A stretch of DNA of 64,000 bases from positions 106,136 to 170,135 of the IMG/VR virus record IMGVR_UViG_3300037483_000594. One strand, given 5' to 3'. Both the position numbers and the translations under genes were made by a program. The DNA is from a virus. Below are positions 10,642 to 13,905 of this stretch, one piece after another; within the stretch, counting starts at the first letter, position 1; every line of letters starts with the position of its first letter. The notes below the pieces were generated by a model. The model was not told the origin of the DNA. It saw only the letters and a list, made by a program, of their open reading frames with translations, and searched no databases.

Positions 10642-10667
10642 AAAAAGTGATGGGAGTTTCCCACCAC
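10642..10667 (-). terminator. Intrinsic terminator directly after the tRNA-like element
   Basis: GTGGTGGGA-AAC-TCCCATCAC (9 bp including one G-U) followed by TTTTT. Confidence 0.6.
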
Positions 10668-10670
10668 TAG

Positions 10671-10739
10671 AGCCGAGACCTGGGCTTGCACCAGGATCTC
10701 CTCCTCAACGGAGGCGGGTTACCTTAACCCCATCTCGGC
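10671..10739 (-). ncRNA. Non-canonical tRNA-like cloverleaf with a 5-nt anticodon loop
   Basis: GCCGAGA TG GGGT-TAAGGTA-ACCC G CCTCC-GTTGA-GGAGG AGAT CCTGG-TGCAAGC-CCAGG TCTCGGC T; all four stems pair perfectly. Confidence 0.72.
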
Positions 10740-10769: not shown

Positions 10770-11087
10770 CTAGTACTTGGACAGAACCTGCCCCACGGTC
10801 CAGCGGGGGTCGTGGGACACGGCGACTACGTACCCCTGGCACTTGGGGTCGTAGATCGCCGTTGCGCCGAACCGGTGCACCAAGAAGTGCACCAGTACGG
10901 CGCAGACAGGGAGGCTCATGGGCCCGCTTATGCGGACCAAGCCCCCGCCGATCTCGAGACCCTTCAAGGTCTCGTTCTCGAGCTCCGCCACGATCTGGGC
11001 GTTCGTGGCGGTCTCCCCGAAACCCACCGTCAGGTCGGTTACCTGATCGGTGGAGTGCGGCTCCCGCCGCACATGGAAAAGTGACAT
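10770..11087 (-). CDS. csx3: Csx3/Crn3-like cyclic oligoadenylate ring nuclease, putative type III anti-CRISPR
   Basis: 105 aa, AAGGAGGTG RBS. RISGPMSLPVCAVLVHFLVHRFGATAIYDPKCQGYVVAVSHDPRWTVGQVL matches the Csx3 pattern (SG..H..YDP[RK]..VV..H..G). Confidence 0.75.
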   Translation of the reverse strand: MSLFHVRREPHSTDQVTDLTVGFGETATNAQIVAELENETLKGLEIGGGLVRISGPMSLPVCAVLVHFLVHRFGATAIYDPKCQGYVVAVSHDPRWTVGQVLSKY

Positions 11088-11098
11088 TGTCACCTCCT

Positions 11099-11154
11099 TG
11101 GCGCAGGTGAGGGGGAGTCGAACCCCCTGACGCCGAAGCGTCTCCAACACCTGC
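11099..11154 (-). ncRNA. 56-nt minimal tRNA-like RNA: acceptor stem, one hairpin, T arm and GCCA; no D or anticodon arm
   Basis: GCAGGTG TTGGA GACGC-TTCG-GCGTC AGGGGG-TTCGACT-CCCCCT CACCTGC G CCA. Confidence 0.7.
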
Positions 11155-11351
11155 CCCAGGGTCACGCCTTACCTGGATGGCGCTTCACTTTTTGTTTCCA
11201 TCCAGAGTGTGAAGTCTCTGGACCGGGCTACTGCTCCACCAAAGAGAGGGCCGGGACAAAGGGCGCCGCTTCGCGCCGATTCGGACACCTCCTGCGGACC
11301 ATGCGCTGCCCGTACCACGCAGAAGGCTGCGAGGGTTTCTTTGTACTCAGA

Positions 11352-11471
11352 TCAGCGCTTCCGCGCTGAGCGGAAGAACCCATAGGGGTCCTTCCCGGTT
11401 ACGCCCTCGATCACGATGGCGAGAAGAACGCACACAGCCACAAGGGCGATGATGAGGAACAATGTTGTCAC
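11352..11471 (-). CDS. 39-aa single-pass membrane peptide (absent from the ORF track)
   Basis: GGAGGTG RBS, GTG start; MTTLFLIIALVAVCVLLAIVIEGVTGKDPYGFFRSARKR. Confidence 0.6.
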   Translation of the reverse strand: MTTLFLIIALVAVCVLLAIVIEGVTGKDPYGFFRSARKR

Positions 11472-11484
11472 GCTACACCTCCAG

Positions 11485-11555
11485 TGCCCCTGGCAGGAAT
11501 CGAACCTGCTCCTCCTGGGTGTAAACCAGGCGCTCGTCCTTCGAGCTACAGGGGC
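11485..11555 (-). tRNA. tRNA-Val(TAC), CCA not encoded
   Basis: GCCCCTG TA GCTC-GAAGGAC-GAGC G CCTGG-TTTACAC-CCAGG AGGA GCAGG-TTCGATT-CCTGC CAGGGGC A. Confidence 0.92.
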
Positions 11556-11582: not shown

Positions 11583-11594
11583 TTCTTATAACAG
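11583..11594 (-). promoter_or_regulatory. Putative phage promoter element CTGTTATAAGAA
   Basis: Identical 12-mer at 12031-12042; lies just upstream of tRNA-Val. Confidence 0.5.
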
Positions 11595-11597
11595 AAG

Positions 11598-12011
11598 TCA
11601 CTGAAATGTATCAACAATCTCCTTGTTGTGTTGGTAGATGGTATCCAGCAGGGCGTCGTACCGTTGGAGAAGGGCGCTGTCCCACGTGGTGATGAAGAAG
11701 CCCACCTCTCCGCCCGGGAAGGACACCCTGTACTCTCCGTCACAGTAGGCAGCGCAGCGAACGGGCTCGAGGGCCTCCCAGGCCTTCTCGAGCAGCGCCT
11801 CGGGCTCTGGGCCCACAAGGCGCTCGAGGGAGGGAAGGTTGTTGTCAACCACCCGTTGGAGCAGCCGGCCCACCTGCCGCATCGCCACGGCCTCTTCGAG
11901 GCTGATCTCTACCGGGGCTGCCCCCGGCAGCCGCAGGCTGACCTCGTAGACCCCTCGGGCCACTCCACCCCACCTCGGAGGGTCCATCAGTTTCCGGATA
12001 AGGGCTTTCAT
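11598..12011 (-). CDS. Hypothetical protein
   Basis: GGAGG RBS; 137-aa ORF. Confidence 0.65.
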   Translation of the reverse strand: MKALIRKLMDPPRWGGVARGVYEVSLRLPGAAPVEISLEEAVAMRQVGRLLQRVVDNNLPSLERLVGPEPEALLEKAWEALEPVRCAAYCDGEYRVSFPGGEVGFFITTWDSALLQRYDALLDTIYQHNKEIVDTFQ

Positions 12012-12030: not shown

Positions 12031-12042
12031 TTCTTATAACAG
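12031..12042 (-). promoter_or_regulatory. Putative phage promoter element CTGTTATAAGAA
   Basis: Identical to 11583-11594; about 20 nt upstream of the ORF start. Confidence 0.5.
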
Positions 12043-12108: not shown

Positions 12109-13905
12109 ATGGACGACCTTTACAAGCGCGCGCAGGACAGTGTCAGCACCGGGTTGTCGGACGAAGAGACCGAGGCCTTGCTGGACGCGGAGATGGAAGA
12201 GGAGGAGCAGGACAGGTACGACGCTCTTCTGGAGGGGGAGGTGGCGGTGGGGAAGGCCCCGGTGGTACCGGTGTCGCTGAGCAAGTACACCGAGTTCAGT
12301 GTGCGGATAAACACCGGGTACGACATCGAACCTTTCTCGTTCAAAGGCAGGGAGCACTTCCGGAAGGTGTACGACACACCTGACAAGGACGTCCTAGTGC
12401 TAGCCAGTCGGCAGTCGGAGAAGTCGACGTTCCTGGGGAACAAGATCTTGGCGTTGTCGGCTATCATCCCCGGGTTTCAGACGCTGTACGTTTCTTCTTC
12501 GGCAACGCAGTCCAAGGTCTTCTCGGAAGACCGGATACGCGAGCCTATCCTGAACTCTCCGCGACTCCAGCAGAGTGTTGACCCGCGTGCCCAGAGTGTT
12601 TTTTCCAAGAGGTTTCGTAACAGCTCCATGATCAGGTTGCGCTACGCCTACCTGACAGCGGACCGAGCTCGTGGTGTGAAGTCAGACGGGATCTTTATCG
12701 ACGAGATTCAGCACATCTTGCCGTCCAACATCCCTATTATCGAGCAGTGTGCGTTCCACTCGATTCACAAGTACCGCACGTACTCCGGGACCCCGTTGAC
12801 CCTCGACAACACCATCGCTGTCCTGTGGGACTCCCACTCCACGCAGAACGAGTGGATCGTCCCCTGCCGGGCCTGTGGCCAGGAGAAGAAGCGGGACACC
12901 TGGTGGTGGAACGTCCTGGGTCCCGGGAACATCGGCAAGGAAGGACTGGTGTGCGAGCACTGTCACCGTCCCATCAACGTGCGCGACCCCGATGCTCAGT
13001 GGGCGTCGATGCAGCCGGTGAACGCGGACAACGCTCTGCGGGTCAACTTCCGCGGTTTCCGGATTACGCAGTTCATGGTCCCGTCGCTGAACTGGCGGAA
13101 AGACATCCTGGAGAAGAGGGAGGAGTACTCCACAGCGCAGTTCAACAACGAGGTGTGTGGGCTGAGCTACGACTCCGGGAGCCGGCCTATTTCCAAGCAG
13201 CAGCTTATCCGCGCCTCACGTGCGGACGTGGACATGTCCGAGATCGAGAAGAACGTGGCCCGGTGCACCGGAGGGGTGTTCGCTGGGGTCGACTGGGGCC
13301 AGGACACGGAGAACTCCTTTACCGTGCTCACCCTGGGCGGGTACATGACCCACGGCTTCCAGATCTTTTTTGCCCACCGGTTCGTGGGGGCCGACTGTGA
13401 CCCCGATGTCCAGCGCGAGAAGGTTGCCAAGCTGCTGGGCGCCGTCCACTTCCGGGTGTGCGGAGCGGACTACGGCGGCGGCTTCGGGCGTAACGACTGG
13501 CTGATGCGCAAGTTCGGAATGAAAAAGTTTGTGCGGTTTCAGTACGCCCCCAACCCCGTGCGGAAGATCGTGTGGAACCCCAAGCTCCTGCGGTTTGTGC
13601 TCCACCGCTCGGAGGTGATGGGCGACTTTTTTAGCGCCTTAAAGGAGCATAGGATCAGCCTTCCGAACTGGAAACAGTTTTCCGAACCACACGGCCGGGA
13701 CATCCGCAACATCTTCACTGAGTTCAACACCCAGCGCCTTCTCATGCAGTACAAGCACACCCATGGCAAAACCGACGACACCTTCCACTCCATCATCTAC
13801 TGCGTCCTGGGGAGCATGCTCGTGAAACCCCGCCCTGACATCCTGATCCCCCTCAAGGAAGGGAACGTCAGCTTTGACCGTGGCGGCCTAGACCTCGCTG
13901 CCTAG
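12109..13905 (+). CDS. terL: Terminase large subunit (gpA-like)
   Basis: Walker A-like ASRQSEKST, Walker B IFIDEIQ, SGTP coupling motif, CxxC..CxxC zinc ribbon, nuclease GVDWG, C-terminal DDTFHS. Confidence 0.9.
   Translation: MDDLYKRAQDSVSTGLSDEETEALLDAEMEEEEQDRYDALLEGEVAVGKAPVVPVSLSKYTEFSVRINTGYDIEPFSFKGREHFRKVYDTPDKDVLVLASRQSEKSTFLGNKILALSAIIPGFQTLYVSSSATQSKVFSEDRIREPILNSPRLQQSVDPRAQSVFSKRFRNSSMIRLRYAYLTADRARGVKSDGIFIDEIQHILPSNIPIIEQCAFHSIHKYRTYSGTPLTLDNTIAVLWDSHSTQNEWIVPCRACGQEKKRDTWWWNVLGPGNIGKEGLVCEHCHRPINVRDPDAQWASMQPVNADNALRVNFRGFRITQFMVPSLNWRKDILEKREEYSTAQFNNEVCGLSYDSGSRPISKQQLIRASRADVDMSEIEKNVARCTGGVFAGVDWGQDTENSFTVLTLGGYMTHGFQIFFAHRFVGADCDPDVQREKVAKLLGAVHFRVCGADYGGGFGRNDWLMRKFGMKKFVRFQYAPNPVRKIVWNPKLLRFVLHRSEVMGDFFSALKEHRISLPNWKQFSEPHGRDIRNIFTEFNTQRLLMQYKHTHGKTDDTFHSIIYCVLGSMLVKPRPDILIPLKEGNVSFDRGGLDLAA

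Follow-up and report, generated by a model that had tools for sequence, protein, structure and literature searches.

The csx3 transcription unit on the minus strand

The window analyzed here, 64,000 nucleotides in length, represents the last 64 kb of a linear 170,135-bp IMG/VR virus record, estimated to be 94% complete and with a genome G+C content of 62%. On its minus strand lies csx3 (10770..11087), which encodes a 105-aa member of the Csx3/Crn3 family. The label given to this gene in the first-pass annotation holds, as its product matched the Pfam family Cas_csx3 (PF09620) with 31.1 bits against a cut-off of 21, and the N-termini of its relatives coincide with its own, aligning at ATG 11087. 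A HMMER search gathered 226 relatives, the best of which is 51% identical, and their alignment exhibited invariant His, Asp-Pro-Lys, and His columns; a PDB sequence search with Csx3 was uninformative. Csx3/Crn3 is described as a ring nuclease acting on cyclic tetra-adenylate (PMC7371418), and the phage product is naturally read, from its family assignment, as ring-nuclease-like and as a candidate type III anti-CRISPR. On a 6.5-kb metagenome contig, one of the nearest Csx3 relatives (52% identical) was also found about 1.2 kb from a gene for a CCA-adding enzyme (L258:502-1830, +), a proximity that may be coincidental. No CCA-adding enzyme of the phage was found in the genome studied here.

Upstream of csx3, by-eye inspection located a sigma-70-like promoter with an extended -10 element (11585..11614, minus strand), composed of TTGATA, an 18-nt spacer ending in TGT, and TATAAG, and placed ahead of a leader hairpin and a tRNA gene. 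As its -10 hexamer ends in G, this site went uncalled by the consensus scanner. The promoter core 8-mer, GTTATAAG, is present in six copies in the genome, in comparison with approximately one expected from a rough base-composition estimate. These sites include 11585-11614 and 12032-12040 of the window, both on the minus strand, and four more elsewhere in the genome; all six look intergenic, and in 4/6 copies the 8-mer is preceded by a T, resembling an extended -10 element. The recurrence of GTTATAAG is likely the signature of early promoters read by the host polymerase. The tRNA gene that follows, tRNA-Val(UAC) (11485..11555, minus strand), was called by ARAGORN and matched by RF00005 with 64.2 bits, and it encodes no CCA. 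Next comes a 39-aa hydrophobic, single-helix-like entry of the ORF list with a GTG start (11352..11471, minus strand), whose Shine-Dalgarno sequence (SD), GGAGGUG, is located 3 nt past the tRNA-Val discriminator and 4 nt upstream of the GTG; no family match was obtained for it, and the operon proteins remained unmatched in PHROGs. An ORF-poor spacer of approximately 197 nt (11155..11351, minus strand), in which we detected no convincing ORF, no Rfam match, and no sigma-70 consensus promoter, separates the 39-aa ORF from a 56-nt tRNA-like element without anticodon (11099..11154, minus strand), hereafter the mini-tRNA. The spacer also harbors an 8-bp hairpin with a 17-nt loop at 11205-11173.

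The mini-tRNA runs almost directly into the ribosome-binding region of csx3 (11079..11097, minus strand), as the first-pass annotation had observed, a single A separating its CCA from the SD GGAGGUG (11097-11091), which thus begins 1 nt past the CCA and precedes the AUG at 11087-11085. In a fold of 201 nt of this context, a 7-bp hairpin (11095-11079, minus strand) pairs the 3′ half of the SD with the first three csx3 codons, holding the AU of the start codon in its loop, and this hairpin was found both in the minimum free energy (MFE) and in the centroid structure. In the same fold, the 5′ leader of the mini-tRNA pairs with the CCA and with the first two G residues of the SD. A tRNA-type fold ending 1-3 nt before the next SD is therefore encountered twice in the operon, in the pair tRNA-Val/39-aa ORF and in the pair mini-tRNA/csx3.

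Directly 3′ of csx3, the MFE fold contains an aberrant four-arm cloverleaf of 68 nt (10672..10739, minus strand), preceded by a hairpin at 10767-10743. The cloverleaf comprises a 7-bp acceptor, a 6-bp arm with a 3-nt loop, a 5-bp arm with a 5-nt loop, and a 5-bp arm with a heptaloop that is not of the T type; its stems are Watson-Crick in 23/23 pairs, CCA is absent, and its stability (z -4.30) was equaled in 0/200 shuffles. ARAGORN needed its mitochondrial mode or a relaxed threshold to call this structure, as ‘Gln (ttg)’, and Rfam yielded no match to it. This combination of perfect stems with loops foreign to tRNAs suggests selection for shape and not for decoding. The csx3 gene lies between two tRNA-shaped folds whose stems are Watson-Crick throughout. 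A predicted intrinsic terminator with a 10-bp stem followed by a T run (10646..10668, minus strand), also present in the fold of the cloverleaf region, closes the csx3 unit, and no consensus promoter was found between the sigma-70-like site and this terminator. Given this promoter-like site upstream, the terminator downstream, and no consensus promoter in the interval, the mini-tRNA probably belongs to the interior of a polycistronic RNA.

A class II tRNA derivative without D and anticodon arms

Read on the minus strand, the mini-tRNA opens with a 7-bp acceptor stem (11154-11148 paired with 11109-11103, 7/7 Watson-Crick), followed by a 5-nt linker, UUGGA (11147-11143), a variable-arm-like hairpin (11142-11129) whose 5-bp stem is capped by a C(UUCG)G tetraloop, and a T arm of 6 bp with the loop UUCGACU (11128-11110), which abuts the hairpin with no spacer. 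The element ends with the discriminator G73 (11102) and an encoded CCA (11101-11099). Stems are Watson-Crick at 18/18 pairs, the second and third acceptor pairs being C2:G71 and A3:U70, and the acceptor-plus-T stack amounts to 13 bp, split 7+6. The 7-bp acceptor, the TTCRANY T loop, the discriminator, and the CCA all agree with the canonical features of this half of a tRNA, and all that lies between the acceptor and the T arm is the 5-nt linker and one hairpin with a 4-nt loop. The mini-tRNA is incapable of decoding because the anticodon arm is absent. This 56-nt fold had been proposed in the first-pass annotation with each of the parts named above, and every detail was borne out by the sequence and by the ViennaRNA prediction, in which the claimed structure is both the MFE and the centroid structure at -30.2 kcal/mol. 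The fold was retained when 201 nt of context were included, and its stability (z -3.41) was equaled in 1/200 shuffles.

A chance origin of this fold is excluded. Counting as canonical every T arm with a Watson-Crick stem of at least 5 bp closed by a TTCRANY heptaloop, we found only two in the whole 170-kb genome, those of tRNA-Val and of the mini-tRNA, in comparison with 0.3 expected from shuffled sequence. A relaxed acceptor-plus-T-arm descriptor produced about one match per shuffled genome, and CCA was present in none of these. Further plain acceptor/T hairpins in this genome numbered 3, against 3.4 expected by chance.

The element escapes the usual tRNA finders, as ARAGORN did not call it as a tRNA and RF00005, in which membership takes a cloverleaf with D and anticodon arms and at least 29 bits, left it unmatched at E<=10 in the genome search. 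The tRNA-Sec model (Rfam RF01852) aligned to it with 28.5 bits, below the gathering score of 47, and with E 0.002 in an 800-nt search. This alignment covers the acceptor, the extra arm, and the T arm and deletes 35 model positions belonging to the D and anticodon arms, in agreement with the first-pass claim that both arms are missing; membership in RF01852 also takes a UCA anticodon arm and a 6-bp D stem, and the mini-tRNA lacks both arms. Against 50,697 phage records, blastn returned partial matches only, the top-ranked of which were class II tRNAs: the segment from the T arm through GCCA resembles a phage tRNA-Ser (93% over 29 nt, E 0.03), whilst the extra arm together with the T arm resembles a phage tRNA-Leu (87% over 31 nt). 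A covariance model built from the mini-tRNA, which scores 92 bits on itself, recovered from 0.86 Mb of tRNA-rich phage loci just full tRNAs or their 3′ parts, at no more than 31.5 bits. Among the short matches of this model, the two that were checked proved to be the 3′ part of a tRNA-Ser and a segment inside a tRNA-Cys, and two further ones appeared Ser-like by eye.

By these sequence comparisons, the mini-tRNA is tRNA-derived and of class II, Ser/Sec-like, and the most fitting interpretation of its hairpin is the long variable arm found in tRNAs of the Ser/Sec/Leu type; G73 points toward Ser or Sec. The Ser/Sec-like character first attributed to the element thus finds support in the RF01852 alignment and in the partial matches to tRNA-Ser and tRNA-Leu. 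It resembles tRNA-Sec and other class II tRNAs in G73, in the encoded CCA, in an extra-arm-like hairpin immediately 5′ of the T arm, and in the T loop UUCGACU; it differs from them in having neither D nor anticodon arm. Its acceptor-plus-T stack totals 13 bp, as does that of tRNA-Sec, but the 7+6 split corresponds neither to the bacterial (8+5) nor to the archaeal/eukaryal (9+4) stack of tRNA-Sec.

Relatives of the element were sought around conserved neighbors and by pattern scans. A pattern-based IMG/VR search gave no relatives for the Csx3 protein or the terminase, whereas a large protein collection held many terminase relatives at 45-60% identity. From phages with a terminase 50-60% identical we assembled seven syntenic loci, searched as loci and not as whole records, which share the order polymerase, conserved genes, short minus-strand cassette, and terminase. 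The minus-strand cassette differs in each of the seven, and none contained a tRNA or a match to the mini-tRNA model above noise; the same held around the three Csx3 genes nearest to that of this phage, for which four loci, two of them phage-like, were examined. As an aside on the terminase, many relatives of the large terminase (12109-13905, plus strand) carry intein/homing-endonuclease insertions (PF14528 and PF14890) and reach 900-1050 aa, whereas the protein of this phage, with 598 aa, has no such insertion. A pattern scan of viral contigs with the 3′ half of the mini-tRNA found nothing, and the matches listed for its acceptor stem in viral and genome contigs were tRNA-Gly, Asn, Arg, or Trp or coding DNA, with neither a mini-tRNA nor a parent tRNA among them. 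The metagenome pattern scan returned tRNA-Trp and other unrelated genes and no mini-tRNA, and the extra-arm-plus-T-arm pattern retrieved at least 111 ordinary tRNAs, of class II or otherwise, and at least 15 uncalled sites, none of them related. In the loci and scans examined, the mini-tRNA therefore appears as a singleton, and with no comparative support selection on its fold cannot be shown.

Other tRNA look-alikes were observed along the way. Outside the window, the same phage genome carries a YrlA-like module (G000:C1:42688-42791, +; L261:489-592) in the circularly permuted order T arm, closed acceptor-like stem, and D arm, which scored 28.6 bits with the Rfam YrlA model (gathering score 69; E 0.001 in a 1.5-kb search); by this match, the phage would carry a second kind of tRNA mimic. 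Further look-alikes without an anticodon, likewise missed by ARAGORN, were noticed on unrelated IMG/VR contigs, namely a minihelix of about 40 nt composed of an acceptor, a 5-nt linker, and a T arm (L353:1215-1254, +) and a cloverleaf of about 69 nt in which a UUCG tetraloop replaces the anticodon loop (L332, near 400-490, -).

RNase P processing and its alternatives

Hairpins made of an acceptor plus T stem-loop and ending in RCCA are efficient substrates of bacterial RNase P and are cut accurately at +1, the 3′ RCCA pairing with the P15 loop of the RNase P RNA (PMC11143913). The minimal-substrate features, that is the acceptor/T coaxial helix, the T loop, G+1, and the 3′ RCCA, are all present in the mini-tRNA. 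Since it retains the parts read by RNase P, a cut is predicted between 11155 and 11154, and we regard this cleavage as the most probable event at the locus. We tentatively favor, at somewhat less than an even chance, a reading in which the mini-tRNA serves as a t-element-like RNase P processing and 5′-capping signal for the csx3 mRNA. In outline, a class II (Ser/Sec-type) tRNA would have been reduced by loss of its D and anticodon arms to the present residue, which would share a transcript with csx3, made by the host RNA polymerase from an early operon. The cut would part csx3 from the preceding stretch of transcript with tRNA-Val and the small ORF, and, as the leader pairs with the CCA and two G residues of the SD in the unprocessed RNA, it would also free the SD. 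Thereafter the mini-tRNA may stay in place as a fully paired 5′ cap blocking 5′-end-dependent decay; alternatively, it may be trimmed at its 3′ end, leaving a csx3 mRNA that starts at the SD. At the other end of the gene, the aberrant cloverleaf would set the 3′ end of the csx3 mRNA likewise, shielded by the hairpin that precedes it. Overall, the arrangement would be a form of tRNA punctuation and the phage equivalent of the t-elements of plant mitochondria.

The first-pass annotation had put forward three functions, a chargeable mimic, a decoy, and a processing signal maturing the csx3 mRNA. It is the last that fits the context best, both in the operon layout and in the fit to RNase P substrates; nothing specific speaks for charging or for a decoy role. 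What the sequence analysis shows is how the mini-tRNA is built, that it derives from a tRNA, and how the operon is laid out, whereas cleavage, stabilization, and any adaptive value are inferred. Several points weigh against processing. The nucleotide at -1 is G and not the U preferred by RNase P, which tends to slow the enzyme, as would the predicted pairing between leader and CCA; the helix has 13 bp (7+6) instead of the canonical 12; host 3′ maturation by cuts a few bases past the CCA would damage the SD or start of csx3; and the mini-tRNA is absent from the seven syntenic loci, from the four Csx3 loci, and from the pattern scans.

The same singleton status, with no homolog in related loci or scans, is what would be expected if the mini-tRNA were a neutral remnant, namely a class II phage tRNA that suffered an internal deletion and still folds, and may even be cut by RNase P, with no selected role, its position beside csx3 reflecting the compact packing of phage genes. 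We consider this unlikely, albeit a serious contender. The first-pass annotation had reasoned that the lack of both a discrete transcript and conservation would indicate such a remnant; our searches bear on the conservation half of that argument, and, with no homolog in the loci and scans searched, a deletion remnant has to be reckoned with on those terms. The cassette is moreover variable among related phages, and the remaining arms match ordinary parts of tRNA-Ser and tRNA-Leu. Decay, however, is entirely absent from an element with 18/18 Watson-Crick pairs and an intact T loop, G73, and CCA, the latter encoded here though the working tRNA-Val has none. Both arms were cleanly removed, leaving a short linker, a 6-bp T stem is not expected from a simple deletion in a 7/5 tRNA, and a second, differently degenerate, perfect-stemmed tRNA shape flanks csx3.

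A further possibility, which we regard as improbable, is that the 56-nt RNA is excised and acts in trans as a free CCA-ended mimic, either a decoy for a host factor or defense toxin that recognizes the acceptor end or elbow of tRNAs or a Ser-like molecule charged for a purpose other than decoding, co-expressed with the anti-CRISPR in a counter-defense island. The encoded GCCA, G73, the long-arm-like hairpin, and the canonical T loop would suit such a role, and the GG of the linker could imitate the D-loop contact. The element shares its presumed early operon with a candidate anti-CRISPR, the same genome holds the YrlA-like mimic, and phage tRNAs are described as counter-defense tools (PMC11464382 and PMC11555353). 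The mini-tRNA itself has no known target, and its acceptor pairs fail the Ala rule, there being no G3:U70. Most described tRNA-directed defenses cut the anticodon loop, and precisely this loop is absent from the mini-tRNA. The second acceptor pair of E. coli tRNA-Ser is G2:C71, from which the C2:G71 of the mini-tRNA differs. Analogous t-elements are not aminoacylated, a cut releasing the 3′ end would leave csx3 with a leader shortened to the SD, and no conservation was found. The more specific proposal that the mini-tRNA is released as a stable Ser/Sec-like mimic, charged or acting as a sponge, and forms an RNA counter-defense partner of the ring nuclease seems to us still less probable.

We attach little weight to the reading of the mini-tRNA as a translational operator, a tRNA-shaped 5′ UTR that would gate the csx3 SD by refolding with the leader or by binding a tRNA-binding protein of the host. 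Operators mimicking tRNAs exist in synthetase genes and provide the model for it, and the SD located 1 nt past the CCA, the pairing of the leader with the CCA and the first SD bases, and the 7-bp hairpin enclosing SD and AUG would all be compatible with gating. The proposal is a structural one drawn from predicted folds; phages of high G+C content often have strong hairpins at their SDs, and we know of no precedent for an acceptor/T-arm operator.

Least credible of all, in our judgment, is that no RNA element is present and that the sequence is an attP-type tRNA fragment or part of a longer csx3 frame starting at GTG 11165. The 3′ halves of tRNAs are common as attP cores. The mini-tRNA nevertheless contains both acceptor strands, which an att core does not need, and no tRNA with its T arm plus acceptor occurred among the scan matches listed; the attP reading was rejected, as no tyrosine or serine recombinase (PF00589, PF00239) was found in the 94%-complete genome. 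The reading frame is indeed open from GTG 11165 across the mini-tRNA into csx3. As all Csx3 relatives begin at the equivalent of ATG 11087, which is preceded by a strong SD, the longer frame was rejected and its openness is, on this sequence alignment, incidental.

Two other candidates were discarded. A tmRNA reading does not agree with the lack of G3:U70 and with a fold that closes on itself, since in tmRNA the tag reading frame and pseudoknots lie between the acceptor strands, and the ‘permuted tmRNA’ call of ARAGORN, obtained only at the 80% threshold, is an artifact whose ‘tag’ is the Csx3 C-terminus. A primer-binding site for the reverse transcriptase of the phage was rejected as well, no complement of at least 12 nt to the mini-tRNA being found elsewhere in the genome.

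Comparison with known tRNA-like processing signals

The RNase P processing reading finds its closest parallel in the tRNA punctuation model of mitochondria and in the t-elements of plant mitochondria, at which RNase P/Z cuts occur at mRNA ends (Forner et al. 2007, PMC1920247) and which are CCA-tailed and base-modified and are not aminoacylated (Ceriotti et al. 2024, bioRxiv 10.1101/2024.09.09.612099). Like the mini-tRNA, they resemble tRNAs in fold yet do not decode, have a conserved T-arm motif, and lie beside protein-coding messages. They are mostly degenerate cloverleaves of organelles, whereas the mini-tRNA is a phage minihelix of acceptor, extra arm, and T arm, and the CCA with which t-elements are tailed is encoded in it. 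For t-elements the direction of RNase P/Z cuts that produce mRNA ends was proposed and, in organelles, shown. Its minimal architecture is also shared by the RNase P model substrates (McClain, Guerrier-Takada and Altman 1987, reviewed in PMC11143913). These are synthetic, and the mini-tRNA departs from them in the added hairpin and linker, in a stack of 13 bp instead of 12 bp, and in the G at -1. Among vertebrate lncRNAs, mascRNA and menRNA are tRNA-like RNAs of approximately 60 nt that RNase P excises from a longer transcript, thereby defining the end of the neighboring RNA, and they resemble the mini-tRNA in their reduced tRNA-like body. They are eukaryotic, keep an anticodon-like stem, and receive their CCA post-transcriptionally, differing from the mini-tRNA on all three counts, and the mascRNA-menRNA model (RF01684) scored 15.2 bits on it (E 4.8; GA 42.5), so that sequence comparison presents them as analogs and not as the same family.

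Processing signals resembling tRNAs, minimal substrates of RNase P, and tRNA islands of phages are already known, and where published surveys touch on tRNA-like candidate RNAs of phages, they do so in a general way only (PMC10690425). We found no description in the literature of a minihelix of acceptor, extra arm, and T arm at work in the operon of a phage. As a single case for which no relatives were found, the element described here is of limited value. If the processing reading is true, a phage would have pared a tRNA down to the minimum recognized by host RNase P and would use this minimum to have the message of an anti-CRISPR-type gene excised and capped. The mini-tRNA would then be a small, naturally occurring part with which mRNA ends could be controlled in bacteria and would represent a class of phage RNA elements missed by tRNA finders and Rfam, and tRNA punctuation by t-elements would extend from organelles to phages.
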